From contig JADFXQ010000001.1 in the NCBI GenBank assembly GCA_015233495.1, forward strand, positions 68,045 through 132,044: a DNA stretch of 64,000 bases, written 5' to 3'. Source of the DNA: Candidatus Omnitrophota bacterium (GTDB lineage: Bacteria; Omnitrophota; Gorgyraeia; Zapsychrales; Zapsychraceae). Made by a program: the position numbers and the translations under genes. A model generated the notes under the pieces. That model was not told the origin of the DNA. It did no database searches and saw only the letters and a list, made by a program, of their open reading frames with translations. Shown piece by piece: positions 5,439 through 59,415 of the stretch (the first letter of the stretch is position 1; the number at the start of each line of letters is the position of its first letter).

Positions 5439-5551
5439 ACAGGACACAAGTATTCTAAATTTTAATTCTAGTTTTTAATAGAAAATCAGGCAGACACAAC
5501 AAATTTTTAAATAAATGTAAACGACATTACTTGTGTCTTGTGTCTTGTGTC
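5439..5551. repeat. GACACAAG/CTTGTGTC terminal-inverted-heptamer intergenic element, copy 1 (forward)
   Basis: Left end is acaGGACACAAGta. Core is aaaatcaggcagacacaacaaattttt...aaatgtaaacgacat. Right end is taCTTGTGTCTTGTGTCTTGTGTC. Lies between convergent genes. Confidence 0.8.
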
Positions 5552-11141: not shown

Positions 11142-13394
11142 CTACCTCCCGGAAATTGACGTTGGAATCCCAATCGGAACAATCCGCAATATCATCCCCC
11201 GAACTCCGGAAAAATTACCTCTCTGAAATTCCGCGATCATCGCCGAGGTAAATTTTAAATCTATGCCCTGCCTCTCTCGCGTGACATCAACCGTGATATT
11301 AAAGTTAATCCCTCCGGGATTCATTCCCGCGAGCGGACTGGATAACACTTTGACATCCGCATTCTCCAATCGCGTCACTTCGCCATTTTTCAATTCCAAT
11401 TGCCGCCATTGAATCACAGAAACACCCTCCTCATGAACACGAGCAACTGTGTTTGACCGCATCGCAATACGCAAAGCGCTCATCTGAATCGCATGGCCAA
11501 AAAGAATGACCGTTTTGCCTCGCAGGTGGGTATCTTCGGCTATCTTCTTTAAAAAACGATACTGCCGCGCAATGAGGTCCAAATATCTTTCACCCCGGTT
11601 AAATGAAGCCAAAGCGCTCCCGGTGATATCATTCATGCCGGTTGTGCTCCCTCCCGGCCAAATACTCACACGTGTTGTTTCCATGTCTCCGGTCATCTTC
11701 CGGGGGGAAAGCCCAACCGACTGCATTTCTGCATGCAATGCTTCCGGCGGCTGCGCATAAGCAAAATGCGTCGCATCACCCATATCCATTTCATTGATGC
11801 CAGGTTCCACAGACACCGGAAGATTAACTCCCAACTCCCGCTTCACTAAATCCAAAAACGGCTGTGCCGTTTGTTGCGCACGTCGTAAACCCGAGGTGAT
11901 AACCACAACTTTCCCGGCAGCAATGTCGGCGCGATAGATATCGAACAATTGTTGACTTGTTTGTTGCGCCTGTTGCACTCCTTTGTCATTAAGAGAATCG
12001 AGAAACTCCTCATTTGCTTGCCCGTTTAAAACAAAATAGCGATTCGCATTCGTATGCCCGTGCCGGACCCCGACCAACTGAACGCCGCTCAGATCAACCC
12101 AAGGCTCGTCGGAAGTATAGGCGATTTCACCTTTTGTGTTGACCTGCAATTTACCATCAGTTGCGTTAACTGCTGTCCAACCTTGCATAGCCGGGCGAGT
12201 GGTCCCAACCGCCAACACAGATACCCGCGCGCGATCGCCGTCTTGACCGGATTTGTCCGTAGGAGAAGATGATCCAGTGATCGTTAAATTCTCTATGCCT
12301 AACCGCATATTTTCTCCGCCGGAAAAATATTGACGCGCAATAGTATCTTCACTCAACGGGTCTGTATCTTCTTTAATATAATTGAACACCCCTTTTTGGT
12401 AAGCCTGTAAGTATTGTTGATATATTTTCTCTTTCACCAAGGGATCATCTGTTAAAACGCCGCCGGTCTTCCCTTTATTACTGTACACTTGATTCAACAA
12501 CGCGTCTTTAAGCGCGATCTTATACCAAGAAGCCAGAATCATGCTATAAAACATCTGCCGTAGCGGAGCAAAATTTTTCCCTTCATTCACTTCCTTTTCA
12601 ATTTCGGGAATGATGATTTCTTTGACAGCCGCAGCAGCCATACTATGAGTTGAAATACGCGGCCGACGCTCAATATGAACCATACCGGTTCGTTCATCTT
12701 GGTCCCGCATTCTCAATCGGCCATCCGCCGCCAAAGCGGCATAATCTTCTTCTAACATTACCTTCAAATGGGAGCCCACAACAAAAGCCGTATGATCCCG
12801 TTCCCGAACCTTCGCATGCTCCGCGACAATCCAAACCTTATTGAATGTATCGACTGGAATATCAGTTGCCCCAAATTGCTTTTCCACCTTGGCATAGACC
12901 CGATCCCAAAAAGTCTTTCCTAATTGGCTATTAGGATACATCAATGACGCAGTCAATTGCTTCAAAATATAATCTTGTGCCAGCATATCCCGGCCAAGTA
13001 TTGTCTTCCCCAACTCCGCCGGAATGATTTTGTCCTTTTCGTATGGAGACAAATTTACCCAAAGATCATCTTCCTTGATCGTTAAAGCTGCTAAAAAATA
13101 TTTAATCAATTTCTGTGATTCTGTTTTGAACTCCGCGCTATCAATCTTGATCTGTGAGGAACCCGTATCCATAATAAAATCAAACAAAAGCGGGTTGTCA
13201 GCATGGATTTCAACGCCCTTCATGATAACCGGCATATAAGCTGGGTTGGAAAGAACCCTGGCTCCCGGCGCCGGCAAAAGCAAGGCCTGAGCCAAGGCCG
13301 CCGGAGAAAGCAGCCCGGAAAAAATAAATCCCCCAATGATCCCCACGCAGATCAATCGAAATATCAATGTCTTTTGGAATGTTTGCCTCTTCAT
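11142..13394 (-). CDS. large secreted protein: conserved N-terminal ~450-aa domain of unknown function fused to C-terminal histidine phosphatase (PGAM-family RHG) domain; paralog of 55163..57472
   Basis: Signal/anchor MKRQTFQKTLIFRLICVGIIGGFIFSGLL. N-domain LIKYFLAALTIKEDDLWVNLSPYEKDKIIP... is shared with the second paralog. C-terminal VGVRHGHTNANR has the RHG motif. Confidence 0.5.
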   Translation of the reverse strand: MKRQTFQKTLIFRLICVGIIGGFIFSGLLSPAALAQALLLPAPGARVLSNPAYMPVIMKGVEIHADNPLLFDFIMDTGSSQIKIDSAEFKTESQKLIKYFLAALTIKEDDLWVNLSPYEKDKIIPAELGKTILGRDMLAQDYILKQLTASLMYPNSQLGKTFWDRVYAKVEKQFGATDIPVDTFNKVWIVAEHAKVRERDHTAFVVGSHLKVMLEEDYAALAADGRLRMRDQDERTGMVHIERRPRISTHSMAAAAVKEIIIPEIEKEVNEGKNFAPLRQMFYSMILASWYKIALKDALLNQVYSNKGKTGGVLTDDPLVKEKIYQQYLQAYQKGVFNYIKEDTDPLSEDTIARQYFSGGENMRLGIENLTITGSSSPTDKSGQDGDRARVSVLAVGTTRPAMQGWTAVNATDGKLQVNTKGEIAYTSDEPWVDLSGVQLVGVRHGHTNANRYFVLNGQANEEFLDSLNDKGVQQAQQTSQQLFDIYRADIAAGKVVVITSGLRRAQQTAQPFLDLVKRELGVNLPVSVEPGINEMDMGDATHFAYAQPPEALHAEMQSVGLSPRKMTGDMETTRVSIWPGGSTTGMNDITGSALASFNRGERYLDLIARQYRFLKKIAEDTHLRGKTVILFGHAIQMSALRIAMRSNTVARVHEEGVSVIQWRQLELKNGEVTRLENADVKVLSSPLAGMNPGGINFNITVDVTRERQGIDLKFTSAMIAEFQRGNFSGVRGMILRIVPIGIPTSISGR

Positions 13395-24062: not shown

Positions 24063-24175
24063 CAGGACACAAGTCATGTCGTTTACAATTTTTATAAATT
24101 TTGTTGTGTTTGCCTGATTTTATCTTAAAAAATAAGATTAAAATTTACAATACTTGTGTCCTGTGTCCTTGTGTC
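24063..24175. repeat. GACACAAG/CTTGTGTC element, copy 2 (reverse orientation)
   Basis: Core aaattttgttgtgtttgcctgatttt is the reverse complement of the copy-1 core. The ends are ccaGGACACAAGtc ... taCTTGTGTCCTGTGTCCTTGTGTC. Confidence 0.8.
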
Positions 24176-26271: not shown

Positions 26272-26389
26272 TACACAAGACACAAGTATTCTGCTCGAAT
26301 GTCCTGCTTATTTAAGGCAAACTCAGGCAAACACAACAAAATATTTTCAAATGCCTAAACAACTTGACTTGTGTCCTGTGTCTTGTCTC
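26272..26389. repeat. GACACAAG/CTTGTGTC element, copy 3 (forward)
   Basis: Left end ataCACAAGACACAAGta. Core ctcaggcaaacacaacaaaatattttcaaatgcctaaa. Right end CTTGTGTCCTGTGTCTTGTCTC. Confidence 0.8.
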
Positions 26390-31123: not shown

Positions 31124-33235
31124 TTAAATCTCTTGTCCAGCCTTGCGCTTGGCAAACCCGGTGCCGCCGCCGACATTGATAGACGGAAACGCCTTAAGCC
31201 GGAAAATCAACATGATTTCGCTGCCCTCGCCCTTTTTGTTAGTCAGCGAAGTTTCCACGGTCCAGCTGTGCAAATCCCGCGTGACCGTGTAGCCCTGTTC
31301 CTTAAGTTTCGAAGCTTTCAAATCAAACCGGTCAAACACATGGAGCGTCCATTTTTTATTCACATCCCAATGCAGGTCGGTAGTCACCTGATCATCCGCG
31401 TCCCGGGCCCAGCGTTTCCCCACATCGAGTCCCCAGCCTTTGCCGTTAATGTACGCATCGAAATTCACCGCACTCCAATGTCTCTGCCGCGGATCATATC
31501 CGGAATCAAAATACAAAGTAAGCCAATCCACCGGACGAAAATCAATGTTCGAAGTAATCGTGTCAAACCCGCCTTTGCGCGGGTCTTCTTTCAAATGAAA
31601 ATCCGTGCCCAGCACCGCGCGCAGCAGTTCGACCGTCTTGTCGTTCCGTTTCGTCTGCAATTTATTTTCTAAAGAAAAATTGATGTTATGAATATTCGTG
31701 ATCGTGTCCACGCTGTCAAAGGCATCCAGCGTGGTGGCTGGCACAGTTGGCTTGTTCTGAAAGTCATAGGAAACGGTTGGCGTGATGATATGGCGCAGCC
31801 GGTTGATTTCCAGTCCATAGGCGTTCATCTGCGCTTCATAAATACGATAAAATTTGGTGCTGACACTTGCCCCGGTTTTAAACACGGCGCGCGTGATATT
31901 GGAGCGGGAAATGTCGTGGGTGCGGCTGTAGTATGTTTCTTCCTGCCCGACATACGGCTTAAATTCGAAAATATGGACCTTCATCGGATACGATAAAATG
32001 TTATCCGTATCCAAACGCATGGTCTTCAAACGACTGACGCTCGGCGCGGCCTGTTCATTGGCCAAATTGGAATAGGTCGTCGCGTTTCTCCAATAAAGCC
32101 CCGAATCCCCCAGCTCAAAATTGGCCATGTCATAACGGACTTCCGGCAGACGCTCGACCTGACTGGTAAACGTATTGACCCGTTTATCCGCCCGCAGGCT
32201 CAAAATCCCTTTCGACAATGTCCGCGTCAAAAGAAAAAACGTCTGCGGATTGCTGTCGCGGTCATACTCCCTTTGGAAAAAATCTTTCAAAAAACGGCTG
32301 TCGCTTAATTTATAAAACTGCATCACCGCGTTGGTCTGCTTATCCATCTGCCATTGATGCCGCCATTCGACCTTATACCGGGTATGTTGAATTTTATAAA
32401 CATCCGTCTTATCCGTGGTGGTTAAGGATTTGTCAGTAAGATAATAGGTGCGCAATAAACCGTTTCCCAAGGAAGGGGTTTTATAAGCGGTATCCAAACC
32501 ATAGCCCATGCCGATCAATTGCCGGTAATCGGCGTGCACAACCGCTTTCAAATGCTCGTCCCCGAAATAGCGCCACTGGCCCAGTAAAAACGCTCCCCAG
32601 CGCTTTTTATAACCGGGAATAACTTCCCACTGGGGTTTGGGATTTTGTAAATTTTGCGAAATCTTCGGAATATACATCAAAGGCACGTTGCCGACTTTCA
32701 TCAGAACATTGCGGGCGATAACCTTATCCTGCGGATAAATTTCGATCTGATCGGCAAACATCCGATATTCCGGATCATCCCAGTCGGAAGTGGTCATATA
32801 ACCTTTAGACATCACCAACTTATCCCCCTGCAGTTTGGTAATCAAATCCGTATATCCGTAAAGCGGGGGCATAAAAATTTTCGCTTGGCGGAATTCGCCT
32901 TTTTGCGTCGCAAAGTTATACTCCAGTTCATTGCCGGCAACCTCGCCTTTTTTGGTGCGCAAACGAACATGGCCTTTCGCGTGCGCATTTTTCGTTTTTT
33001 GCTCAAAAGTGACCATGTCGCAGGTCAGTGTCGAATCCTGATAAATAATTTTCACATTGCCCTTGGCGGTGATCAGACTTCCATCCACCGAATATTCCAC
33101 AGTGTCCCCATTCAGCTCTACGGAAGACGCGGGCGAAGAGACCGCGGCAAAACCTCTCCCCGTCCCGGCTAAAACAACCGACAAAAGCATCAATACCGCT
33201 TTTAATGGAAAATTCCAGGTTTCGCGCTTTGTCAT
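31124..33235 (-). CDS. lptD: LPS-assembly protein LptD (OstA family)
   Basis: Signal peptide. N-terminal OstA/LptA-like repeats (GNVKIIY...GHVRL...) and a ~550-aa C-terminal beta-barrel. Confidence 0.7.
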   Translation of the reverse strand: MTKRETWNFPLKAVLMLLSVVLAGTGRGFAAVSSPASSVELNGDTVEYSVDGSLITAKGNVKIIYQDSTLTCDMVTFEQKTKNAHAKGHVRLRTKKGEVAGNELEYNFATQKGEFRQAKIFMPPLYGYTDLITKLQGDKLVMSKGYMTTSDWDDPEYRMFADQIEIYPQDKVIARNVLMKVGNVPLMYIPKISQNLQNPKPQWEVIPGYKKRWGAFLLGQWRYFGDEHLKAVVHADYRQLIGMGYGLDTAYKTPSLGNGLLRTYYLTDKSLTTTDKTDVYKIQHTRYKVEWRHQWQMDKQTNAVMQFYKLSDSRFLKDFFQREYDRDSNPQTFFLLTRTLSKGILSLRADKRVNTFTSQVERLPEVRYDMANFELGDSGLYWRNATTYSNLANEQAAPSVSRLKTMRLDTDNILSYPMKVHIFEFKPYVGQEETYYSRTHDISRSNITRAVFKTGASVSTKFYRIYEAQMNAYGLEINRLRHIITPTVSYDFQNKPTVPATTLDAFDSVDTITNIHNINFSLENKLQTKRNDKTVELLRAVLGTDFHLKEDPRKGGFDTITSNIDFRPVDWLTLYFDSGYDPRQRHWSAVNFDAYINGKGWGLDVGKRWARDADDQVTTDLHWDVNKKWTLHVFDRFDLKASKLKEQGYTVTRDLHSWTVETSLTNKKGEGSEIMLIFRLKAFPSINVGGGTGFAKRKAGQEI

Positions 33236-34185
33236 TTGAATTTTGTCATTTGAATTTTGTCATTTGTCATTAATAAACCCGCTCCGATCACGCCCGCGTC
33301 ATCGCCTAATTTCGCCGCCGCCACTTTAACTAACTGCGCGGGAACTCCCATTGCCCGTTCGCGGATCGTGGCGGCAATCGCTGTTTTCATAAAACGCAAA
33401 CTTTTCGCGACCCCGCCGCCTATCACAATAAGACGCGGATTTAATAAATTAACCGCCCCGACTAAACCATACCCAACCACTGTGCCGACCCCATACCAAA
33501 AATCCAAAGCCCGGCTATCGCCCCGCGCTGCTAAGGCGTAAACATCTTCTAATGTGATATCTTGGCGTTTAAAAAAATCCCGCGCTCCAGCCAAGAGAGT
33601 GGCATTGCCGACATAACGCTCAAAACAAGCCCGCCCGCCGCAATTGCACGCCGGCCCGTTTTCATTGAGCGGCACATGACCCAGCTCGCCCGCGCAAAAC
33701 CCTTCGCCGCGATACAATTTGCCCTCTAAAATCAAACCCGCGCCCACCCCCGTACCCAGCGTCATACAAATCATGTTCCGGTAGCCCCGTCCGGCTCCGA
33801 ATTTCGCCTCCGCCAGAGCCATACCATTGACATCATTATCTACCCGGACCGGTAACCCTAATTTTGCTTCTGCCAATTTCTGCAAAGGCACATTTTTCCA
33901 CCCAAAAATATTCGTCAAAGTCAAAACCACGCCCCGGTCAAAATCCACCAAACCCGGCACGCCAAAACCCACGCCTTGCACCTGATCTTGACGCAGTCCC
34001 CGCGCCGCTAAAAGCCCGGCCACACTTTCGACCACCGCTTGAATCAGACATTCTTTATCCGCGGCCACCTCGGCGGTCTTGATCCGGCCTCGGGCCACAA
34101 TCTCCCCGGCATCCGAGACGATACCCAGTTTAATATTCGTGCCGCCAATATCAACGCCAATCACATAATTTTTCTTATACATCAT
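33232..34185 (-). CDS. ROK family sugar kinase (glucokinase-like)
   Basis: VIGVDIGGTNIKLGIV, and an EAGHxP ROK motif including a CxCGxxGC zinc motif. Confidence 0.75.
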   Translation of the reverse strand: MMYKKNYVIGVDIGGTNIKLGIVSDAGEIVARGRIKTAEVAADKECLIQAVVESVAGLLAARGLRQDQVQGVGFGVPGLVDFDRGVVLTLTNIFGWKNVPLQKLAEAKLGLPVRVDNDVNGMALAEAKFGAGRGYRNMICMTLGTGVGAGLILEGKLYRGEGFCAGELGHVPLNENGPACNCGGRACFERYVGNATLLAGARDFFKRQDITLEDVYALAARGDSRALDFWYGVGTVVGYGLVGAVNLLNPRLIVIGGGVAKSLRFMKTAIAATIRERAMGVPAQLVKVAAAKLGDDAGVIGAGLLMTNDKIQMTKFK

Positions 34186-43329: not shown

Positions 43330-43349
43330 ATATTTTTGAAAGTCATAAA

Positions 43350-43487
43350 GACACAGGACACAAAGACATAAGATATGTTGCACACGTCATTTTAAAATTT
43401 TAATGTGTCTGTCTGATCATCCTTTAAAAAATAAAATACTAAATCACAACACTTGTGTCCTGTGTCTTTGTGTCTTGTGTCCTTGTA
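43350..43487. repeat. GACACAAG/CTTGTGTC element, copy 5 (reverse), between dnaK and dnaJ
   Basis: GACACAGGACACAAAGACATAAG ... core ... CTTGTGTCCTGTGTCTTTGTGTCTTGTGTCCTTGTa. This is the longest heptamer array. Confidence 0.8.
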
Positions 43488-48964: not shown

Positions 48965-51544
48965 TCACACAATTTCGATCACCAACCCATCGGCCTTTGC
49001 CTCCACCCGAACTACGCTCTTTTCCTTCACATCACCCTGCAACATCTTCAAGGCGATCGGGTCCTGTAATTCCCGCTGAATCACTCTCTTTAAAGGCCGC
49101 GCCCCATACACCGGATCATAACCCAGCCGGCCGATATAATCCAAGACCGCGTCGGTCACCTCCAACGCGATATATTTCTGCGCCAGCCTTTCGCGCAGCA
49201 CTCCGACCTGAATATCCACAATCTTTCGGATATCCTCCTTGCGCAGCCGGTTAAACACCACAATCTCATCCAGCCGATTCAAAAATTCCGGCCGAAAATG
49301 AGCTTTCAACGCCTCCTGAACGCGAGATCGAATCTCCTGCCGCTTCTCCAAACCGGCAATCAAATCCGAACCGACATTCGACGTCATAATAATGATCGTA
49401 TTCTTAAAATTCACCAACCGGCCCTGCCCATCGGTCAACCGGCCGTCATCGAGAATCTGCAAAAGCGCGTTAAAAACTTCCGGATGCGCTTTTTCAATCT
49501 CATCAAACAAAATCACCGCGTAAGGCCGGCGCCGCACGGCTTCCGTCAACTGCCCGCCTTCTTCATAACCCACATACCCCGGCGGCGCGCCGATCAACCG
49601 CGACACGCTGTGCTTTTCCATATACTCGCTCATGTCTAACCTGATCATGGCATTAACATCATCAAACAAAAACCAGGCCAAAGACCGCGCCAGCTCCGTC
49701 TTGCCCACACCCGTCGGTCCGACAAAAATAAACGAACCCATCGGCCGGTTGGGGTCATTCAATCCGGTCGCTGACCGGCGGATACAATTCGCGATCAAAT
49801 CCACCGCGTCATCCTGGCCGACCACCCGTTTCTTTAAACTCTCCTCGATATGCACCAGCTTCTGCGTATCGCTTTCCATCAATTTCGTGACCGGGATCTT
49901 CGTCCACTTGGCAACTACCTCGGCGATATCCTGGTCATCAACTTCTTCTTTCAACAAAGCGCCGCCTTTCTGCAATTCCAGCAACGCCGCGTTTTCTTTT
50001 TGTAAATCCTTATCGAGCTGGACGAGTACACCATAACGGATTTGCGCCACCTTATCGAGCATCCCCTGTTTTTCAAATTGCTGTTCCTCGGCCCGGGCGC
50101 GCTCAATATCCGTCTTGATCTTGCGAATCCGCTCGATCCGTCCCTTCTCATTCTGCCAGCGGCCGCGCAATTGTTTGTTTTCTTCCTTAAGTTCCGCTAA
50201 ATCCTGTTTCAATTTAGCCAAACGCTGACGAGATGCCTCATCCGTTTCCTTAGCCAAGGCCTGCGCCTCGATTTCCATTTGCCGGATCTTGCGTTCATTC
50301 ACGTCTAATTCCTGCGGCATACTGTCAATCTCAATCCGCAAACGCGACGCTGCCTCATCTATCAAATCAATCGCCTTGTCAGGTAAAAACCGGTCGGTAA
50401 TATAGCGTTGTGACATCACCGCCGCCGCGATCAAGGCCGGGTCCTGAATCCGCACGCCGTGATGAATTTCATATTTTTCCTTCAAACCCCGCAGAATCGC
50501 GATCGTGTCTTCCACCGTCGGCTCATTCACCAGAACGGGTTGAAACCGCCGCTCCAGGGCCGCGTCTTTTTCAATATATTTGCGATACTCATCCAAAGTC
50601 GTAGCGCCGACACAGCGCAGCAATCCCCGTGCCAAAGCGGGTTTCAGCATATTGGAAGCGTCAAGCGACCCTTCAGCCTTGCCCGCGCCGACAATCGTGT
50701 GCAGTTCATCAATAAACAATATGATCTCGCCGGCCCGCGATTCAATTTCCTTAAGCACCGCTTTCAACCGGTCTTCAAATTCTCCCCGGAACTTGGCCCC
50801 GGCCAAAAGACTGCCAATATCGAGGCTAATGACTTTTTTATCCTTTAAACCTTCCGGCACGTCGCCAGAGGCGATCCGCTGGGCCAGACCTTCAATGATC
50901 GCGGTTTTCCCCACGCCAGGCTCGCCGATCAATACCGGATTATTTTTGGTCCGGCGGGACAAAACCTGCACGACGCGGCGGATTTCCTCATCACGGCCAA
51001 TCACCGGATCGAGTTTTCCTTGATTCGCGGCCGCGGTCAGATCCCGGCCGTATTTGTCCAATGCCTGATATTTCGCTTCCGGATTATCGTCCACCACGCG
51101 CTGCTCGCCCCGAATCTCTTTTAAAAAACGTAAAATATCGTCTTCGCTAATCCCGTTTTTCCGCAACTCCCGGCTCAAAATAGATTGCTGATCACGGGAA
51201 ATGGCCAAAAAAATATGTTCCTGCGAAACATAATCATCTTTCATGCCGGCAGCGATTTTTTGGCTGTTTTCCAACACCTGATTCGCAGCCGGAGACAAAA
51301 ACGGTTGTCCCCCGCCGTCCACAGCCGGACGCTTGCGCAAATTGTCATCCAAAGAACTCAACAACCGATCCGCGGACAAGCCGAATTTCTGCAATAAAAC
51401 GCCGAACAGCCCCGCGTCTTCCTTAATATAGGCAAAGGTCAAATGGTCAACATCAATCTGCTGGTGCCCCATCTGCCCCGCCAAATCCATGGCCTTTTGC
51501 AACCCCTCCTGCGACTTTTGCGTAAGCTTATCAAATCGAATCAT
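48965..51544 (-). CDS. clpB: ATP-dependent chaperone ClpB
   Basis: Two AAA+ modules ([16 protein letters not shown]), a middle coiled-coil, 859 aa. Confidence 0.97.
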
Positions 51545-51563
51545 AGCGCCTCCTTCTCTTCGA

Positions 51564-51590
51564 TTAGCAGTCTATCATTGAGAGTGCTAA
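51564..51590. promoter_or_regulatory. CIRCE operator upstream of clpB
   Basis: TTAGCAGTC-tatcattga-GAGTGCTAA, 20 bp upstream of the clpB start, with a GGAGG SD between. Confidence 0.8.
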
Positions 51591-51644
51591 AAAGCAAGAA
51601 AAATTAATTGCCTGCTTTATCAACAAAAATTTTCTCCTAACAAT

Positions 51645-51680
51645 TTGACAATGCGCAGCAAATGTGTATATTAATACACA
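51645..51680 (+). promoter_or_regulatory. mazEF-like promoter with palindromic operator
   Basis: TTGACA (51645-50), a 16-nt spacer, then TGTGTATATT extended -10. The perfect palindrome TGTGTAT-atta-ATACACA (51663..51680) overlaps the -10. SD AGGAGG is 8 nt before ATG 51695. Confidence 0.55.
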
Positions 51681-51694
51681 AGGAGGTGTGTATT

Positions 51695-51916
51695 ATGGTG
51701 CGCATGAATATAACAATGCCGGATCGGATAGCTCAAAAACTATCTAACATAAACAATAAAAGCCGTTTTATCGCCGAAGCCGTCGAGGAAAAAATCGACA
51801 CCCAAGAAAAACAAATACTTTTTGCGGCTTTGTCTCAAGAATACAAACAAATGTCAATGCGGCAAAAAACATTCATCAAAGATTGGCAAAAAATTGAAAC
51901 CGAGGGCTGGGAATGA
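51695..51916 (+). CDS. ribbon-helix-helix (CopG/MazE-like) antitoxin
   Basis: 73 aa, MVRMNITMPDRIAQKL... RHH N-terminus. The stop overlaps the toxin ATG (ATGA). Confidence 0.55.
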   Translation: MVRMNITMPDRIAQKLSNINNKSRFIAEAVEEKIDTQEKQILFAALSQEYKQMSMRQKTFIKDWQKIETEGWE

Positions 51917-52260
51917 AAAATCCGCATCCCCAACGCGGAGAAATTTGGGTCGTTCAATTGGATCCCGCGATCGGCTCCGAAATCAAAAAAACCAGACCCG
52001 CCTTAATTATTTCAAACAACGCGCATAATCGTTTCATGGGCCATTTGACAGTTTTACCCATCAGCGACGCGGGTGAGAAAGTTTATTTAGTCGAGGTATT
52101 CCTCCCCGCCGGCATAGCAAACTTAACAAAAAATTCCAAAATCCGCTGTCATCAAATCCGAACCATTGACAAATCCCGTTTTATTAAACCGATAGGTTCC
52201 ATTCCACAAATGTATTGGGAATCTATTGAAAAAGCCCTGCGAATCCATTTAAATTTTTAG
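51913..52260 (+). CDS. MazF/PemK family endoribonuclease toxin
   Basis: GEIWVVQLDPAIGSEIKKTRPALIIS is the classic PemK/MazF N-terminus. 115 aa. Confidence 0.8.
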   Translation: MKNPHPQRGEIWVVQLDPAIGSEIKKTRPALIISNNAHNRFMGHLTVLPISDAGEKVYLVEVFLPAGIANLTKNSKIRCHQIRTIDKSRFIKPIGSIPQMYWESIEKALRIHLNF

Positions 52261-53555
52261 CCACCTGCCTCGCCCCGGCCTTCTGTCTTCTGCCCTCCAT
52301 ATACAGCAAATTTCCCGCACATTTGCGCCGGGACTGAAGCCCGGATGTTGATGTGGTCTTCGTAATAGGTGATGGACGTCACCTCGCCGTCATTATGGGC
52401 GAGACTCACCAGGTCCATCCGGTTGATCGGCACGTCGACGTTGATTTCCACGAACAGCGACATGAGCATGGTGCTGATCTCTTCCAAGAGACGCGGGATA
52501 TTCTCTCCGGACAACGCGGAAATCGCGATCGCGTTTTTAAACTGCTTGGCCGCGCCGTCCAAAAATGTCCGATCCGCCAGTTTATCGATTTTATTAAACA
52601 CCACGATCATCGGTTTCTGGTCCGCTGCCAATTGCTTCAGCACATCGACCACCGCCTCATAAAGCAAACCATACTGGGTATTGCTGACATCCACCACGTG
52701 CAAAAGCAAATCCGCGTCCTGCACTTCCTCAAGCGTCGCCTTAAACGATTCGATGAGGTTGTGCGGCAAATCGTGCATAAATCCGACTGTGTCAGAGATG
52801 ACCACCTTCTGATGATTCGGCAGAGCAAACTGCCGTGCCAAAGAGTCCAGCGTCGTAAACAGCCCGTCGTGAGTGATCTGTCCCGCGCCGGTCAGAGCGT
52901 TTAACAGCGTTGACTTCCCGGCATTGGTATACCCGACCAAAGAAATCAGCGGAACCTTGGCCTGGCGTTTCTTGCGCTTCACCGAACGATCCGCGGAAAT
53001 CTCTTTCAATTTATCCCGCAGCCGTGCGATCTTATCATCGATCTGCCGGCGGTCGACTTCCAATTTCGTTTCGCCGGGACCCACTGTGCCGATGCCGCCG
53101 CCCAACCGAGACATTTCCTTGCCGTGGCCGGTCAACCGCGGCATCAGATATTGCAGCTGCGCCAGTTCAACCTGCATCTTGCCTTCATTGCTCGTCGCGC
53201 GGCGGGCAAAAATATCTAAAATCAATTGCGTCCGGTCAATCACCCGGGTTTTCACGGCTTCCTCAATATTTCTCTGCTGACTGCCTTTCAAATCATAACT
53301 GAAAATCACGGTATCCACCGCGTGTAGAGAACAGCGCTGGGCAATCTCCTGGATCTTCCCCTCTCCGATCAAATACCGCGCCGTCGGCTCCACGTCCTTG
53401 CACAATACCGAATCCACTACTTCGCCCCCGCCGGAAATGACCAATTCCTTCATCTCCGCGAGATGCTCCTCCAGACTCCAGGTGGCCCGCTGGTTATGCA
53501 AATAAACCACGACAATCAAAACCTTTTCCTTCCCGCGCTGGGTCGAATGCGTCAT
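52257..53555 (-). CDS. hflX: GTPase HflX
   Basis: HflX N-domain, G-domain (GYTNAGKSTL, DTVGF, NKID), 432 aa. Confidence 0.85.
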   Translation of the reverse strand: MTHSTQRGKEKVLIVVVYLHNQRATWSLEEHLAEMKELVISGGGEVVDSVLCKDVEPTARYLIGEGKIQEIAQRCSLHAVDTVIFSYDLKGSQQRNIEEAVKTRVIDRTQLILDIFARRATSNEGKMQVELAQLQYLMPRLTGHGKEMSRLGGGIGTVGPGETKLEVDRRQIDDKIARLRDKLKEISADRSVKRKKRQAKVPLISLVGYTNAGKSTLLNALTGAGQITHDGLFTTLDSLARQFALPNHQKVVISDTVGFMHDLPHNLIESFKATLEEVQDADLLLHVVDVSNTQYGLLYEAVVDVLKQLAADQKPMIVVFNKIDKLADRTFLDGAAKQFKNAIAISALSGENIPRLLEEISTMLMSLFVEINVDVPINRMDLVSLAHNDGEVTSITYYEDHINIRASVPAQMCGKFAVYGGQKTEGRGEAGG

Positions 53556-53578
53556 GTAAGTCCTTTATGATCCTTAAA

Positions 53579-54469
53579 TTATTTCTTCAACAGCTTCTTA
53601 TTCTGCGGAATTGTAAGATAATTTTCCCGACTGACAACCAAGTCTCCGCTTTTTTGTTCCAATTCTTTTCTGGCATTGCCGGCCACACTTCCACCGTCAA
53701 TGGCTGCCTGCTTATTCGAATCAAAACCCTGGGAATTACGGCCGCGGGCGATTTTTGTCGTTGATGCTTCCCCAAGCATGGAGAAAATCAATTCCAAATC
53801 CGTCATATGATCCCGCAAATTCTGACGACTCAATCCCTTATATTTTTTATACTCGGAAGGGGTCATCCCAAATGCCGCTTTTGAAATTTCTGCAGTTAAA
53901 ATCGCGTAATTCTGCTGGTCTTTAATACCTCGTTTGTTCCATTCATCCGTCAATTCCTCCCTAATGGCAATACCGCGCACGCGTTTTTCAATCCACTCCT
54001 CCGAATATCCTTTTGCTTTATAAATCGCCCTTAAGCGTTTCATAGCCAGTTCGGGGTCTTCAATTTCCTGAACGCGCTCATAACCAACTTTAGCCAACCA
54101 GCGTTTAAATGGTTCTGCTTTGGGCGACGGTATCGTCTGAATAATACGAAATAAGCTTTCAGTATTAGCACAGTCTGTCAAATATTCCTTGCCGTCAGAT
54201 GCCATTAATTTCAGTTGTCCGATTTTTTCGGACACCTCAACATACCCTTCTTGAATCAATTTTTTCTTTAAATCGCTCCAATATTTCCTGGGTCTTGCTG
54301 TTTCAGTGAGCGCCTCCACAACATCAATAACCGAAAACCACCATTCATTCTGATGAATCGTTTTCCTAACCTGCTTTCCTTTAAAAACAGCAATTTTGGT
54401 TACACTGATTTCATTGCGCATCTCCGCCTCCCCCCATCCAAAACGATTCAAAAATATCAACCACAACAA
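53579..54469 (-). CDS. Bro-N domain protein, DNA-damage-inducible protein D (DinD)-like
   Basis: Bro-N-like N-terminus (VFKGKQVRKTIHQNEWWFSVIDVVEAL). The C-terminal region parallels E. coli DinD (...AILTAEISKAAFGMTPSEYKKYKGLSRQNLRDHMTDLEL...). Confidence 0.55.
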   Translation of the reverse strand: MLWLIFLNRFGWGEAEMRNEISVTKIAVFKGKQVRKTIHQNEWWFSVIDVVEALTETARPRKYWSDLKKKLIQEGYVEVSEKIGQLKLMASDGKEYLTDCANTESLFRIIQTIPSPKAEPFKRWLAKVGYERVQEIEDPELAMKRLRAIYKAKGYSEEWIEKRVRGIAIREELTDEWNKRGIKDQQNYAILTAEISKAAFGMTPSEYKKYKGLSRQNLRDHMTDLELIFSMLGEASTTKIARGRNSQGFDSNKQAAIDGGSVAGNARKELEQKSGDLVVSRENYLTIPQNKKLLKK

Positions 54470-54496
54470 GCTTAAAGATTATATCAGCTCATTTCC

Positions 54497-54579
54497 TCAT
54501 GCACAAAACAACATCTTATTATGCACAAATTGACATGACTTCATGCACAAAACAGCAAAAAATTACGCACAAGTTGACA
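54497..54579. repeat. four direct 17-mer repeats T(C/T)A(T/C)GCACAA(A/G)(A/T)(C/T)(A/G)(A/G)CA spaced 21-23 bp upstream of the dinD-like gene
   Basis: tcATGCACAAAACAACA, ttATGCACAAATTGACA, tcATGCACAAAACAGCA, ttACGCACAAGTTGACA at 54497, 54518, 54541 and 54563. Confidence 0.6.
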
Positions 54580-54641
54580 AATGTTGATTTTTCCGTCGGT
54601 GAGCATCTTTTGAAATAGACGATGAAATGGCCCCATTGATT

Positions 54642-57472
54642 TTATCTGGCCCGGACCGGATGACCTCCCACGGATCCTGCGCATAAAAACTCCGGCAAGG
54701 TTTGGGACAGCGGAAACACTCCGAGAACGTCTGGCGACAAACCCCGGAAATCGGCAACACCCGCTGGGTCAAACCGAAAGGTCCAAGACCCGCCGCGGGT
54801 CTCGACGCCTTCCTCGAGTAGATCAATTCCGCCGTTGGCTGGCTGCCGTCCTACGGGCGAAGCAGCAGGTTTTTCTGGAACGACCAACGGCAAATAAACC
54901 GTGAATTTTGAACCTTTTCCCAATTCTGAAACAGCTTCGATATTCCCATACATTTGATGCACAATCATGTAAACAGCTTCCAAGCCGAGCCCTGTTCCGG
55001 GAACATCTCCGACATTGCCGGCCCGAAACCCCCTGTAAAAAACTTTTTCGATTTCACCCGACGGTATACCAATGCCCGTGTCCTCAACTTCCAAAACCAT
55101 GCACGGCTTCTCTGACTGACCGGAGTATTTGAGCTGTTTTGAAGCTTTGGCGAGTCGAACTGTCACCCCCCCCGTGGTGTGTATTTGATCGCGTTTTGCA
55201 GAAGATTATCCACAACCACTTTCAGCCAATTAACGTCACAACGCGCCACAAACATATCCTCATCCGTTAATTCCACGCGAAAATCCAATCCTTTCGCAAC
55301 TGCCCGACTTCTCCCAGCCGCGACACTTGCGGCAATCAATGGCGTGACATTTCTCGTCTGAAAATCACTGCCTTGCTCTAATAAACCAATAAAAAGATCC
55401 GACGCGTCCATCACATAATTTTCCGACGCGTTATATTTTAAATACTGCTTTAATGATTCCATGGCCTGCGGCGATTGAGCATCTGCCGCGTGAATTAGCT
55501 CTAATAACCGGGGAATATGTCCATATATAAATGGATATATCCCCAAGGGAAATGCATCCACTCCGCCATTGTGCCTCAATGAAGTCATAAAATCACAAAA
55601 ATCGTTATAACCGTTTCTCTTTAATAAATCCCGAACACCAAACCAAGGGGCGTTTCCCTGCCCAATGAGATGATTGAGCCGCCCTGCGAATGCCGCTTTT
55701 TCCGCCTCGGTAATTTCGCCGTTGGTCTGAACCCCAGGCAAAGAGCGTCCGGCATAAATCTGAATATATCCGTCTTCCTTTTCCTGCCATTGTTTAAAAT
55801 CCGGAGACGCCATAACCCCGGAAAACATCCCGGATTCGCGCATCGCAACTTTCGCTTGAGTCCGCTTGCGTTCCTCGGCGTCCCGATCTAATCCGCCGAA
55901 TATTTCATTCTTATGAAGAACTAAAGATGTCAGTTCTTTTTCACTAAAACCAAAAGAATAATGAAAATCATAAGAAAAATCCCTGCCCCACCAAATCATC
56001 ACTTTGTCCACTTTAAAATCTCTGGCTGTTTCCCGCAAAAATGCGTCCATTCGTTGTCTGATCCGGGGTTCAACAATCCCGAATACTGCCGGCAATGCCC
56101 TAATCGCGTCAACGTGGATTTTGATTTCATCCCCGGCTTGACGAATTTGCGGATAAGCGTCCCGCTCAAAAGCCTGAATGCCTTGTTCTTGCAATACCTT
56201 TAATCCTTTAGCAAACGCGGCCTGCAGTCCGGGATATAATGCTCGCATCGCCTTCATATGCGCGGTCAATCTGTCCCTGGCTTCCTTAATTGTTAACCGC
56301 CGCGGTTCGGCGGAATACGTCGGACTGGAGGAAGCCGAATCAAAATTCAGCCGCACCGGAATTTCGCGGTACCGGCGCGTTGATCCGTTTTGCGGAATTT
56401 GGGCAGGAGAGGAAACCGTTTCAATCGCCGCTGACGCCAGAGCCACACCGCCGGAAAAATATTTCCGCGTCACGCTTTCTTCCGTGAGCGGGTCATAATC
56501 TTCCTTGGTCGTGTTATACACGCCTTGTTTGAAGGCCGCGATGTATCGGTTATACATTTTCTCTTTAATGGTTTTGTCCGCGAGGTCAATGCCGACAATC
56601 TTATTTTGGTCCGCGTAAGACCGGCCGAGGATGCTGTCTTTGAGTTTGCGTTTAAACCAAGAAGCCAAGATAAACGAATGGACCACCTGGCGCAGAGGGG
56701 CAAAATGAGCGCCTTCATTGACTTCTTTTTCCAAGGCCGGGATAACAACCTCGCGGGTGATTCGGGCGGCAATGTCGTCCATCGGGCAAGACGGCGCACG
56801 CGCGACAGCGGGTTTTGCCGCGCGCTGACCGATATAGTCTTGCTCCAACATGACTTTTAACCGGCTTTCAACAACATAGGCCGTGGCCTCGGTTTTTGTT
56901 CTTCCGCCCTCGTAAACCACTGCCTTGTCGAGAACAATCCAGACTTTATTCAATGTCTCGATCGGGATATCAGTCGTGCCATAACGCTGTCGCGCATAGC
57001 CGTAAACCTTTTCCCAGAATTCCTTGCCGACCGGGCTATCGGGATTGAGCAAAGACGCGGTGATTTGTTTGAGGATAAAATCCTGGCTTAAAAGATCGCG
57101 GCCCAGGTCCGTGACTGCCAGGCTGTCGGGGATGACCCGGTTTTTTTCATAAGGCGAGAGATTCACCCAAAGATCTTTTTCCGGAACGGTCAACGCGGCC
57201 AGAAAATATTTGACGAGTCGGCCGGATTCCGTTTTCAGTTTTTCCGGCAAGTAATCCGCGTTCCCGACATCCAAAATAAAATCCAATTTAAACGGATTAT
57301 CTGCGTAGACCTTGACGCCTTTCAACAAAGGCGGGCCGAATTCCAGGCTCAATGCCGGCCGGCTGACGGTCGCCGGCAGTTGCGCCAGTCCCTGACCCGC
57401 AACCGGATCAACCTGGGCGCTGATAAACGCCGATAAAATGAAAATGGCAACAATGCGTCGCGTCATAAACAA
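54642..57472 (-). pseudogene. large secreted sensor-like protein (paralog of 11142..13394) with C-terminal GHKL/histidine-kinase-type ATPase domain, split by frameshift in a G8 (plus-strand C8) homopolymer at 55166..55173
   Basis: ORFs 55163..57472 and 54642..55166 are in different frames. Inserting one G gives the continuous protein ...NLLQNAIKYTPRGGVTVRLAKASK...VEDTGIGIP...FYRGF...GTGLGL...GSKFTVYLPL (N, G1, F, G2 boxes). The N-terminal ~450 aa are homologous to 11142..13394. Confidence 0.55.
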
Positions 57473-57733
57473 AAAAAGTTTAAAAATAAGGATAAAAAAA
57501 GGACAGCCTGCCTGAGACTGCCCTTAAAATATATACTATTTATTTCAAAATGGCCAATTTTTGACTAAACATATATAATTTGATCAATGCCGACGAAGAT
57601 GTTAATATTTGACCGATGCGATCAAAAAAGGGGATGTCCTATGGCTAAGAAAATAGTGAAACTTTGGTTTGATAAAGAAGGCGATATTAAACGTGAGTAA
57701 ACTGTCCCATAAACCTATTCGAGTTTCGTTGAT

Positions 57734-58645
57734 TTAAAATTCACTGATCGTTTTAACGGCAACGGCTATCGGCTTATCTTTTCCCAACTCAATCCACTGC
57801 GCTCGTTTTTCTTTCCGAAACCAGGTGAGCTGGCGTTTGGCGAATTGGCGGGTGTGCATTTTCATGAGGATTTTGGCGGCCTCCAGGTCGTGTTCGCCGC
57901 GAAAGTAAGCTTGCAGTTCCGGGATGCCGATGAGCGAGCCGGCGGTGCGGCTTAATTTTATGCCGGCGAGAGATTTGATTTCTTCAAGCAAGCCGGCCGC
58001 GAACATCGCGTCCACGCGCTGATTGATCCTCTCATACAATTCTTCCCGGTCGAGGTTCAGGCAAAAAATATCAATCGGTTGTTTTCCCCACAACCCGCGC
58101 CGTTCTTTCTGCGCCTCGGTTGCCGGCCGGTCATGGGTCAGGCAAATCTCCAAGGCCCGAATCAGACGTCGGCGGTCATTCGGGTGGACTTTTGATGCAG
58201 CTTGCGGGTCTTGGCTTCGCAATTGTTCATATAAAAACGCTAGGCCTTTCTCATCCGCCAATAGGGATAACTCTTCCCGGCAACCGCCATCTTGACTCCG
58301 ATCTTCAAAAATCCCGTCTAACAAAATCTGCATATACATCCCGCTGCCGCCGGCCACGACCGGCACCCGGCCGCGGGACTGGATGTCGACGATCGCGGCG
58401 TTCGCCATGCGGTTGAACGCGGCCACATCATAATCTTCCGTCACGGAGAGAAACCCGACGAGATGGTGCGGAACGCGGCGCAAACCATCATCGGACGGCC
58501 GGTTGTTGGCGATGCGGATCTCGCGGTACACCTGCATCGAATCGCAGGAAACAATCTCCCCGCCAACCCGCTCGGCTACTGCCAAGGCGATTTCGGATTT
58601 CCCGACTGCCGTAGGCCCGACGATAAAAACAATCTTATTTATCAT
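57734..58645 (-). CDS. miaA: tRNA dimethylallyltransferase
   Basis: IVGPTAVGKS P-loop and full-length MiaA similarity. Confidence 0.9.
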   Translation of the reverse strand: MINKIVFIVGPTAVGKSEIALAVAERVGGEIVSCDSMQVYREIRIANNRPSDDGLRRVPHHLVGFLSVTEDYDVAAFNRMANAAIVDIQSRGRVPVVAGGSGMYMQILLDGIFEDRSQDGGCREELSLLADEKGLAFLYEQLRSQDPQAASKVHPNDRRRLIRALEICLTHDRPATEAQKERRGLWGKQPIDIFCLNLDREELYERINQRVDAMFAAGLLEEIKSLAGIKLSRTAGSLIGIPELQAYFRGEHDLEAAKILMKMHTRQFAKRQLTWFRKEKRAQWIELGKDKPIAVAVKTISEF

Positions 58646-59415
58646 GGATATATTTTGGAAGGATAACCCAATGACTTTATCTGTTCTTGCGCCTGCCGCG
58701 CCTCATTTAAAGTCGAAAATTTACCGACGCGGACCCGGAAATATCTTTTGCCGTTATCTGCCATCTCGGATATATAGGGCTTCAAATTTTTCGACTTCAT
58801 TTCGGAAAGCAATTGTTCCGACCGCGCCCGCTCCGTGAATGACCCGCTCTGGATAGAGAAAAACGGCTCTTCTTTCAGCAATTCGGCGGCATATTCCGAT
58901 TCAAAACTTTTCGGAAAATCCAGAGTAATTTTGCTCAGCAAAACCCGGCCATCCTCCCAACGTCCCAATTTTAAATCAATCCGCGCTTTTCTGTAAAAAT
59001 ATAAACTCAAAGCGTCGGATTGCGGATGAGCCGCCAAACATTTCTCAATTCCCGCCAAAGCCGCTTCGTATTTTTCCTCGGAATAATTTAGATCCACCAT
59101 TGCCAAGTCCACCTGTTCCCTTAACAAAGCATCCTTAACTTCAGAGTCCAAAGCCTGCAGCACGGCGGAAGCTTTCGCGTTTTCACCAGCGCGCAGGTAA
59201 ATCAAACCCAGATAATAACGTCCGCGCCAAATATTCAAATCCTGACTTTGCGCCGCCAAAAGCGGTTCTGCCAAAATCCGCACTTCTTTATCATCTTGAC
59301 GGATAAACGCGCTCTCGATTTGAGATAAATCCGCGGCAGAAAATCCGCAGCAGAACAACCAAACGTTTAACAGGCCAAGTCCCGCAAATAATAAACGCAT
59401 ATTCATCCTTTCCAA
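58642..59415 (-). CDS. TPR-repeat protein with C-terminal SPOR (peptidoglycan-binding) domain
   Basis: Signal peptide. TPR-like helices. C-terminal FSIQSGSFTERARSEQLLSEMKSKNLKPYI...YFRVRVGKFSTLNEARQAQEQIK has the SPOR pattern. Confidence 0.55.
   Translation of the reverse strand: MERMNMRLLFAGLGLLNVWLFCCGFSAADLSQIESAFIRQDDKEVRILAEPLLAAQSQDLNIWRGRYYLGLIYLRAGENAKASAVLQALDSEVKDALLREQVDLAMVDLNYSEEKYEAALAGIEKCLAAHPQSDALSLYFYRKARIDLKLGRWEDGRVLLSKITLDFPKSFESEYAAELLKEEPFFSIQSGSFTERARSEQLLSEMKSKNLKPYISEMADNGKRYFRVRVGKFSTLNEARQAQEQIKSLGYPSKIYP

Follow-up and report, generated by a model that had tools for sequence, protein, structure and literature searches.

What stands between miaA and hflX in this stretch of the genome of a Candidatus Omnitrophota bacterium, and what is the array of four direct repeats that precedes one of the intervening genes, a Bro-N gene? 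The whole 64-kb stretch (contig JADFXQ010000001.1) is referred to below as the window, and all coordinates follow its numbering. The explanation favoured here, with moderate confidence, combines a mosaic insertion between miaA and hflX, a second insertion of a mazEF-type toxin–antitoxin (TA) pair beyond hflX, repeats that are predicted sites of a factor encoded elsewhere in the genome, and a promoter within the islet that would supply hflX.

An insertion between miaA and hflX

Between 48.9 and 59.8 kb, every gene apart from the small TA pair is on the minus strand. In the order of transcription they are a SPOR/TPR gene, miaA, a kinase-like gene (two ORFs), a 220-bp spacer, the Bro-N gene and hflX, followed by the plus-strand TA pair and clpB. 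The genes named in the initial annotation (miaA, hflX, a split HATPase_c gene, the Bro-N gene and a PemK/MazF module beyond hflX) are all present where it had placed them. The features of the locus are as follows.

58642–59415, minus strand: SPOR/TPR gene, upstream of miaA
57734–58645, minus strand: miaA (tRNA isopentenyltransferase), Pfam IPPT 254 bits; upstream border of the insertion
57499–57525, minus strand: terminator-like hairpin with T-run, an 11-pair stem with 5 GC pairs followed by TTTTTAT (consensus scan); predicted function
54642–57466, minus strand: kinase-like cargo gene with a 1-nt frameshift, HATPase_c 54.8 bits on the downstream ORF
55166–55173: C8 run (G8 on the coding strand), the frameshift site, from sequence and translation
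54499–54586: four direct repeats (period exactly 22 bp; 15-bp core plus 7-bp variable spacer) of two subtypes in alternation
54478–54486, minus strand: extended −10 element TGATATAAT of the Bro-N gene, read from the sequence; predicted promoter activity
53579–54421, minus strand: Bro-N/DinD-like gene, PADLOC PDC-S13 (Bro-N 45 bits, PDC-S13 398 bits, phrog_15286 318 bits)
52257–53555, minus strand: hflX (ribosome-associated GTPase), Pfam GTP-bdg_N, GTP-bdg_M, MMR_HSR1 and HflX_C; downstream border of the insertion
51695–51916 and 51913–52260, plus strand: putative antitoxin and PemK/MazF toxin (PemK_toxin 102 bits; MazF-like PHROG)
48965–51544, minus strand: clpB

For the synteny comparison, relatives were collected by a MiaA protein search, with one genome per species and 10-kb flanks, and the proteins of the window were mapped onto the resulting 24 miaA loci. 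In all eight Omnitrophota loci (L005–L012, MiaA 40–53 % identical), hflX was located 13–128 bp after miaA. The closest HflX relative among 5.8 billion proteins (L217, 67 % identity) lies on a 2.4-kb contig with a miaA–hflX gap of 1 bp. The distance was 1–128 bp in nine of ten related Omnitrophota loci, and one further relative had another upstream gene. The SPOR/TPR gene precedes miaA in seven of the eight Omnitrophota loci (L005–L010 among these), and clpB is found downstream of hflX wherever the contigs of the relatives extend that far. At the level of gene order, this comparison shows a usual lineage arrangement of SPOR/TPR gene, miaA, hflX and clpB and, because miaA and hflX abut in the relatives, an insertion of about 4.2 kb (53556–57733) into a tight pair here. 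An accessory islet in a conserved neighbourhood had been proposed, and it is supported by this synteny as well as by the low GC content at third codon positions (GC3) of the Bro-N gene (0.43) and mazEF (0.42–0.45) versus 0.62–0.69 for miaA, hflX and clpB. The GC3 of the kinase-like gene (0.51–0.53) is nearer to that of its own paralogue at 11142–13394 (0.49), and its intact orthologue, P0122, has a different genomic context. The 4.2-kb patch is shown to be a mosaic and not a single element. No tRNA or tmRNA marking an integration site was detected by scanning, and an Rfam scan of the whole window returned no family. A short plus-strand ORF (57642–57701), considered as a DUF2283 remnant, was without Pfam support for this identity, which was dropped.

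We conclude that the islet is an ordinary mosaic in which a lineage-specific cargo gene, now decayed, stands next to a mobile gene that is a defence candidate; a TA pair lies close by. Small TA or candidate-defence insertions between housekeeping genes are common, and the islet is mostly of this kind; only its repeat is not ordinary.

In E. coli and other Proteobacteria, miaA and hflX are part of a miaA-hfq-hflX(KC) superoperon. The locus resembles it in having miaA upstream of hflX on the same strand, but differs in that hfq is missing, as it is from the Omnitrophota relatives examined, and that the inserted genes are unrelated to hfq. The window contains no Hfq-like ORF, and tblastn with E. 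coli and B. subtilis Hfq gave nothing better than E=2, confirming the earlier observation that there is no hfq between miaA and hflX. The accompanying suggestion that the islet stands where hfq would otherwise be found did not hold. In the 24 miaA loci, tblastn (E≤1) detected nothing within 10 kb of miaA; hfq was found at or within 10 kb of miaA–hflX in none of the eight Omnitrophota relatives with 10-kb flanks, and in L217 only 1 bp separates the two genes. Because relatives without the insertion are also without hfq, its absence is not a consequence of the insertion, and on these searches the lack of hfq characterises the sampled lineage rather than reflecting a replacement. The expectation of an hfq gene between miaA and hflX is thereby corrected: in Omnitrophota both genes simply abut.

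The repeat array, the predicted Bro-N promoter and hflX

The four repeat units start at 54499, 54521, 54543 and 54565, with a period of exactly 22 bp, and each comprises a 15-bp conserved core, AYGCACAARWYRRCA, followed by a 7-bp spacer (unit 1, ATGCACAAAACAACA-TCTTATT; unit 2, ATGCACAAATTGACA-TGACTTC; unit 3, ATGCACAAAACAGCA-AAAAATT; unit 4, ACGCACAAGTTGACA-AATGTTG). Two subtypes alternate (units 1 and 3, ...AAAACARCA; units 2 and 4, ...ARTTGACA), and the array is therefore a 44-bp unit present twice. Comparison of the 44-bp halves gives 3 mismatches in 30 core positions and 9 in 14 spacer positions (90 % conserved and 64 % diverged, respectively; Fisher P=4e-4), a result that is indicative and not proof, the boundary between core and spacer having been set after seeing the sequence. 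Four exact copies of the 9-mer ATGCACAAA are present in 64 kb, three of them in register in the array. The array is far beyond chance. Four direct repeats had been reported, and both the array and the number of units stand, whereas the spacing is exactly 22 bp and not 21–23 bp and the conserved part is 15 bp plus a 7-bp spacer and not 17 bp.

A perfect extended −10 element, TGATATAAT, was identified at 54486–54478 on the gene strand of the Bro-N gene. The −35 position, 17 bp upstream of TGATATAAT, is occupied by TTGTGC (54506–54501), which lies within the core of repeat unit 1. The predicted start site is near 54471 and is followed by a ribosome-binding site, GGAGG, and by the ATG start codon at 54421; relative to this start site, the array spans about −28 to −115. 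A consensus promoter scan did not list this promoter because its −35 hexamer matches at only 3 of 6 positions.

The array is real, locus-specific and probably protein-binding, on one helix face at the Bro-N/hflX promoter. As far as its pattern can be interpreted, a protein-binding array is most likely, and cooperative binding on one helix face is the best reading. The four 22-bp-phased repeats would be binding sites for a factor encoded elsewhere in the genome. Because the sites are phased on one face between −28 and −115 of the extended −10 promoter, with unit 1 at the −35 position, a bound oligomer would either occlude or recruit RNA polymerase.

The predicted promoter bears on hflX as well. 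The hflX start is 23 bp after the Bro-N stop codon, and a terminator-like hairpin is located about 210 nt after the miaA stop, inside the inserted DNA; because of this hairpin and the 23-bp gap, hflX is probably transcribed from within the islet. The insertion would have brought a terminator after miaA, and the islet promoter probably now also supplies hflX. The hairpin overlaps a promoter-like site of the kinase-like gene, TTGGCC-18-TATATT (57557–57528; overlapping region 57499–57557), and transcripts from this site would be without the 5′ arm of the hairpin. No recognisable Shine–Dalgarno sequence precedes the kinase-like gene.

The specificity of the array to this locus was assessed upstream of homologous Bro-N genes. 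The motif was absent from the 150–300 bp upstream of 79 metagenomic or genomic homologues (63–87 % identity) and 18 viral ones (0 of 97), no comparable multi-copy 22-bp array was found upstream of these 97, and the 78 non-redundant chromosomal upstream regions had no common motif. These comparisons indicate an array that is locus-specific and not part of a Bro-N cassette. The suggestion that the repeat is a regulon motif was not borne out: neither the 9-mer nor the 15-mer is above chance in the window, and the motif is absent from 824 kb of related non-viral loci.

Several points weigh against the favoured explanation, besides the post hoc boundary between core and spacer. Elsewhere in the 64-kb window the motif has five two-mismatch matches, with 5.1 expected, and no second copy, and the 824 kb of related loci give no sign of a regulon. 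The databases contain no close relative of the organism (best HflX match 67 %). The promoter, the terminator and the read-through into hflX are predicted at the level of consensus. The frameshift in the kinase-like gene could be an assembly or sequencing error in a homopolymer, and a defence role is only a candidate label for the whole PDC-S13 family.

The alternative that survives best, itself unlikely, is that the array derives from a mobile replicon or integrative element and survives as its relic (iterons of an origin, a partition site or integrase arm-type sites), having come with the Bro-N gene and now lacking a cognate protein. With the iterons found at origins of lambda-type phages and of theta plasmids (17–22-bp units with a period of about 22 bp), the array shares direct repeats, an exact 22-bp period and a core with variable spacer; even the core TGCACAA recurs in phage iteron families, one example lying within the O-like gene of Acinetobacter phage TRS1. 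The pattern TGCACAA-N15-TGCACAA-N15-TGCACAA was present in 62 viral contigs (2.9 million scanned) belonging to 11 unrelated families, compared with 8 and 3 for two composition-matched control 7-mers. The largest family (43 contigs) is found inside a lambda-O-like replication initiator gene of Acinetobacter phages and prophages, a classical iteron origin, and the array of the window is at the upstream edge of the low-GC segment holding the Bro-N gene. However, no initiator, partition or integrase gene was found in the islet or the window flanks examined, no inverted partner array was found in the window, and neither the motif nor a multi-copy 22-bp array precedes any of the 97 homologous Bro-N genes (18 viral). 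The array also differs from iterons in being intergenic and over a promoter, in having only four units with no initiator in or beside them, and in its lack of homologous phage or plasmid DNA, a BLAST search of the array region against phage and plasmid collections having returned nothing meaningful. In a relic that nothing binds, cores would not be expected to stay at 90 % identity while the spacers randomise. The viral TGCACAA arrays with a 22-bp period are at loci L029–L090 (e.g. L030:3323–3440 and L219:1924–2040).

Somewhat less probable still is neutral replication slippage from 22 to 44 to 88 bp, with function limited to A/T-rich upstream DNA. This would account for the presence of only four copies, for the 44-bp super-repeat, which fits two successive duplications, and for a motif found nowhere else in the window or the 824 kb of related loci. 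The non-uniform mismatches (3 of 30 in cores versus 9 of 14 in spacers, P=4e-4, from a post hoc partition of a small sample) are unexpected under neutral decay.

Binding of the array by the Bro-N protein, with autoregulation of its own gene, appears improbable. Bro-N is a class of DNA-binding domain, and the array lies immediately before the gene, over its −35 position. Proteins that are 63–87 % identical should share specificity, yet TGCACAA/TTGTGCA was found in none of the 79 chromosomal and 18 viral upstream regions, and the chromosomal set has no other common motif either. Autoregulation is disfavoured because the motif is missing upstream of these homologues.

A DnaA-box cluster, titrating DnaA or giving DnaA control of the promoter, is highly improbable. 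With their 5′ flanks, the units (TCATGCACA, TTATGCACA, TCATGCACA and TTACGCACA) score 8, 9, 8 and 8 of 9 against the relaxed box TTWTNCACA, all in one orientation; this was one of several motifs compared post hoc, with a rough chance estimate of our own of about 0.03 before correction for these comparisons. In the window, 157 sites lie within one mismatch of the box, including another cluster of four within 120 bp at 51617, and there is no dnaA signature and no turn in GC skew (cumulative skew is monotonic from 46 to 64 kb), while the flanking genes on both sides have the same orientation (minus strand). All 11 exact window matches of the relaxed box are on the plus strand (4.9 expected on both strands), a bias that probably reflects the strong negative GC skew and the strand composition of the replichore.

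The operator proposed in the initial annotation, a non-canonical LexA or phage-repressor site making the dinD-like gene SOS-inducible, is equally doubtful. Many homologues are named 'DNA-damage-inducible protein D', and the best, though weak, match of the Bro-N model in the PDB is the DNA-damage response protein DdrC. We know of no SOS motif described for Omnitrophota. Some LexA motifs are direct repeats, and Verrucomicrobia LexA, with the motif TGTTC-N4-GAACA, uses tandem sites (PMC4951493). The units here match this motif at only 6–7 of 10 positions and are without dyad symmetry, no dyad motif is present in 54420–54620, and a half-site spacing of 22 bp is too wide for a single LexA dimer. 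A perfect palindrome, CTATACATATGTATAG, at L182:14938–14953 (minus strand) precedes the start codon of an Omnitrophota lexA gene by about 13 bp and is a candidate LexA box for the phylum. No site like it occurs within 54420–54620, near the Bro-N promoter, although the palindrome comes from L182 and may not be the motif of this organism. No S24-family repressor was noted in or beside the islet, most ORFs of the window being without annotation, and the Bro-N protein does not reach the DinD equivalog cut-off. Tn7-like or transposon ends (no inverted partner array, no transposase) and PhoB/OmpR-type sites (sub-repeats within the unit 8 bp apart and not 10–11 bp) were considered and rejected.

Genes of the islet and its surroundings

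The Bro-N ORF spans 53579–54469, and the real start is the ATG at 54421, giving a protein of 280 aa identical to NCBI protein P0001. It matches Pfam Bro-N (PF02498) with 45.3 bits versus a gathering score of 25.6 (residues 34–127 of the long ORF, profile positions 2–92 of 96), PADLOC PDC-S13 (model PDLC04920) over its full length with 398.3 bits (E=4.5e-120, residues 9–277 on positions 5–274 of 286), and phrog_15286, a PHROG of unknown function, with 318 bits. The score against the NCBIfam DinD equivalog NF008573 is 16.3 bits versus a cut-off of 242 and covers only residues 154–243. The label DinD is thus replaced: the gene is a member of PDC-S13 and not a DinD orthologue. E. coli DinD is SOS-inducible and is a reported RecA-filament inhibitor. 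The protein resembles it in its two-part layout, in weak C-terminal similarity (residues 154–243 on positions 148–239) and in having homologues named DinD, but differs in score and in that no LexA-type box was found at its promoter.

More than 8000 homologues were found, and the best 120, at 73–100 % identity, are from Omnitrophota, Planctomycetota, Nitrospirota and Patescibacteria; identity across phyla is 63–87 %. In the six homologue contexts examined, the gene is solitary and its neighbours are mutually unrelated (among them a DpnI/DUF1016 islet between pdxA and ksgA, a lipopolysaccharide sugar cluster and sites beside an SLFN-like helicase). Several neighbours, such as DpnI, DUF1016 and the SLFN-like helicase, are defence-like, and 32 copies of the gene are on viral contigs. 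Judged by this distribution, the gene behaves as a highly conserved, horizontally mobile single gene. The PDCs are 145 candidate phage-defence genes, proposed on the ground that such genes occur embedded in BREX, DISARM and type I restriction–modification (RM) systems; non-embedded homologues are allowed by the authors, who call the PDCs untested candidates (Payne et al., bioRxiv 10.1101/2024.01.29.577857). The gene agrees with PDC-S13 in its full-length match, N-terminal Bro-N domain, helical C-terminal half and solitary position, and differs in standing between two housekeeping genes outside BREX, DISARM or type I RM: the miaA–hflX interval contains no RM, BREX or DISARM genes, and the neighbours are the kinase-like gene and hflX.

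An AlphaFold model of the protein is confident only for residues 1–150. Its best PDB matches are weak and all DNA-binding (DdrC, E=7.7e-3, and the APSES proteins Mbp1 and PCG2), and a PDB sequence search with the Bro-N family profile gave no match. The protein would bind DNA via its N-terminal Bro-N/APSES-like domain and is a candidate anti-phage or DNA-damage-linked factor. Folding energy gave no indication of RNA structure in the leader (z-score 0.06). An 11-nt perfect complement between leader and codons ~20–23 (54354–54364 and 54440–54450), which is not conserved in homologues, would loop out the ribosome-binding site and start codon.

The kinase-like gene is split into an upstream ORF (55163–57472) and a downstream ORF (54642–55166, 174 aa, HATPase_c). 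The upstream part (55163–57466) encodes 767 aa with a signal-peptide-like start and no Pfam match. One extra G at the C8/G8 run (55166–55173) restores the frame to give a 941-aa product, which is colinear end to end, at 50 % identity, with the intact 956-aa P0122, through the junction to a shared C-terminal tail; at the junction, KYTPRGG / VTVRLAK aligns with KYTREGRVIVRLTK of P0122. This alignment identifies the two ORFs as one gene broken by a 1-nt slip in the G8 run, in agreement with its earlier description as frameshifted.

Its earlier label as a sensor gene, by contrast, is not tenable. The product has a signal-peptide-like N-terminus, a conserved Omnitrophota N-domain, a variable middle, HATPase_c and a GGIDL...FDPA tail. 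In common with classical sensor histidine kinases it has a C-terminal HATPase_c (54.8 bits on ORF 54642–55166) with N-box, which is on the upstream ORF, and G-box, together with weak NCBIfam matches to PnpS, BaeS and CreC just upstream. It differs from them in having no adjacent response regulator, no membrane-spanning sensor architecture, with no transmembrane segment after the signal-peptide-like N-terminus, and no detected HisKA/DHp domain: the 769-aa part has no Pfam match at E≤0.01, and the NCBIfam alignments begin only at residue ~690–730, just before HATPase_c, though a very divergent DHp may have been missed. A further difference is that its N-domain and C-tail are common to paralogues with phosphatase, radical-SAM, methyltransferase, Zeta-toxin or ART domains.

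No Pfam match was obtained for the N-terminal ~320 residues, which contain the invariant motifs LWVNLSPYE, GRDLL.QDY.LKQ, NKVWI, EKEVNEG.NF..LRQ and KYFSGG; the C-terminal tail is GGIDL...F.FDPAM...PVI. Both are found in at least 3856 proteins, which are from Omnitrophota wherever taxonomy was labelled among the top matches listed (P0121–P0240). The interchangeable middle modules comprise HATPase_c, histidine phosphatase (His_Phos_1), radical SAM, methyltransferases, PEP-utilising enzymes, GNAT, Zeta toxin, ART-PolyVal, metallophosphatase and glycoside hydrolase (GH26). The paralogue at 11142–13394 has the histidine-phosphatase module, and a model of the N-domain (pLDDT 64) gave no structural match. 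By its domain content, the kinase-like gene is a member of a polymorphic cargo architecture and not a two-component sensor, and the layout of the family resembles that of a polymorphic effector or cargo system.

Between hflX and clpB, the toxin ORF (51913–52260) matches the PemK_toxin profile with 102 bits versus a cut-off of 23.1 and is overlapped by 4 bp by a small ORF upstream, so that the MazEF-like module described next to hflX is confirmed in its toxin and in the presence of the upstream ORF. The putative antitoxin has no family match in Pfam or NCBIfam, and its identity rests on position, size, the 4-bp overlap and a palindromic operator. The promoter of the mazE-like and mazF genes (51645–51697) is TTGACA-16-TATATT, and an 18-bp palindrome, TGTGTATATTAATACACA (51663–51680), lies over its −10 element, the usual layout of an autoregulated TA operator. 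The pair resembles MazEF/PemIK type II modules in its PemK_toxin match, 4-bp gene overlap and palindromic operator over the −10 element, and differs in an antitoxin that matches no known family. In L008 (12170–13125) and L009 (12212–13251), the hflX–clpB gap contains a MerR-like ORF and a small heat-shock gene (alpha-crystallin-like, by eye); the corresponding gap in the window (51545–52256) has mazEF instead, encoded on the opposite strand, whereas in L005 the gap is no more than ~120 bp. Gene order shows the TA pair as a second small accessory insertion, between hflX and clpB.

Other repeats were observed in the window. A dispersed element of ~110–130 bp (5443–5551, 24066–24175, 26279–26375 and 43339–43486, also 42157) has inverted heptad runs (GACACAA ... 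CTTGTGTC, 2–4 times) around an AT-rich centre, and CTTGTGTC occurs 12 times in the window versus 0.68 expected. It resembles a miniature inverted-repeat transposable element, a repetitive extragenic palindromic element or a shared operator. At 33228–33271, 2.8 copies of TTTGTCATTTGAAT form a perfect 14-bp tandem repeat (Tandem Repeats Finder score 78).

Significance for hflX and the PDC-S13 family

The Omnitrophota cargo family is the most interesting thing seen in this analysis, though it lies outside the question of the islet. For PDC-S13, the locus provides a clean natural case of a member outside any defence system, with a promoter and array that could offer a handle for studying its control. 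For the host genes, the insertion probably changed hflX transcription. A more specific and tentative proposal, to which a low probability is given, is that the array is the operator of a novel Omnitrophota regulator and that hflX, cut off from miaA by an imported terminator, is under new control together with a candidate defence gene. If so, the insertion would have rewired a conserved ribosome-rescue GTPase, hflX.

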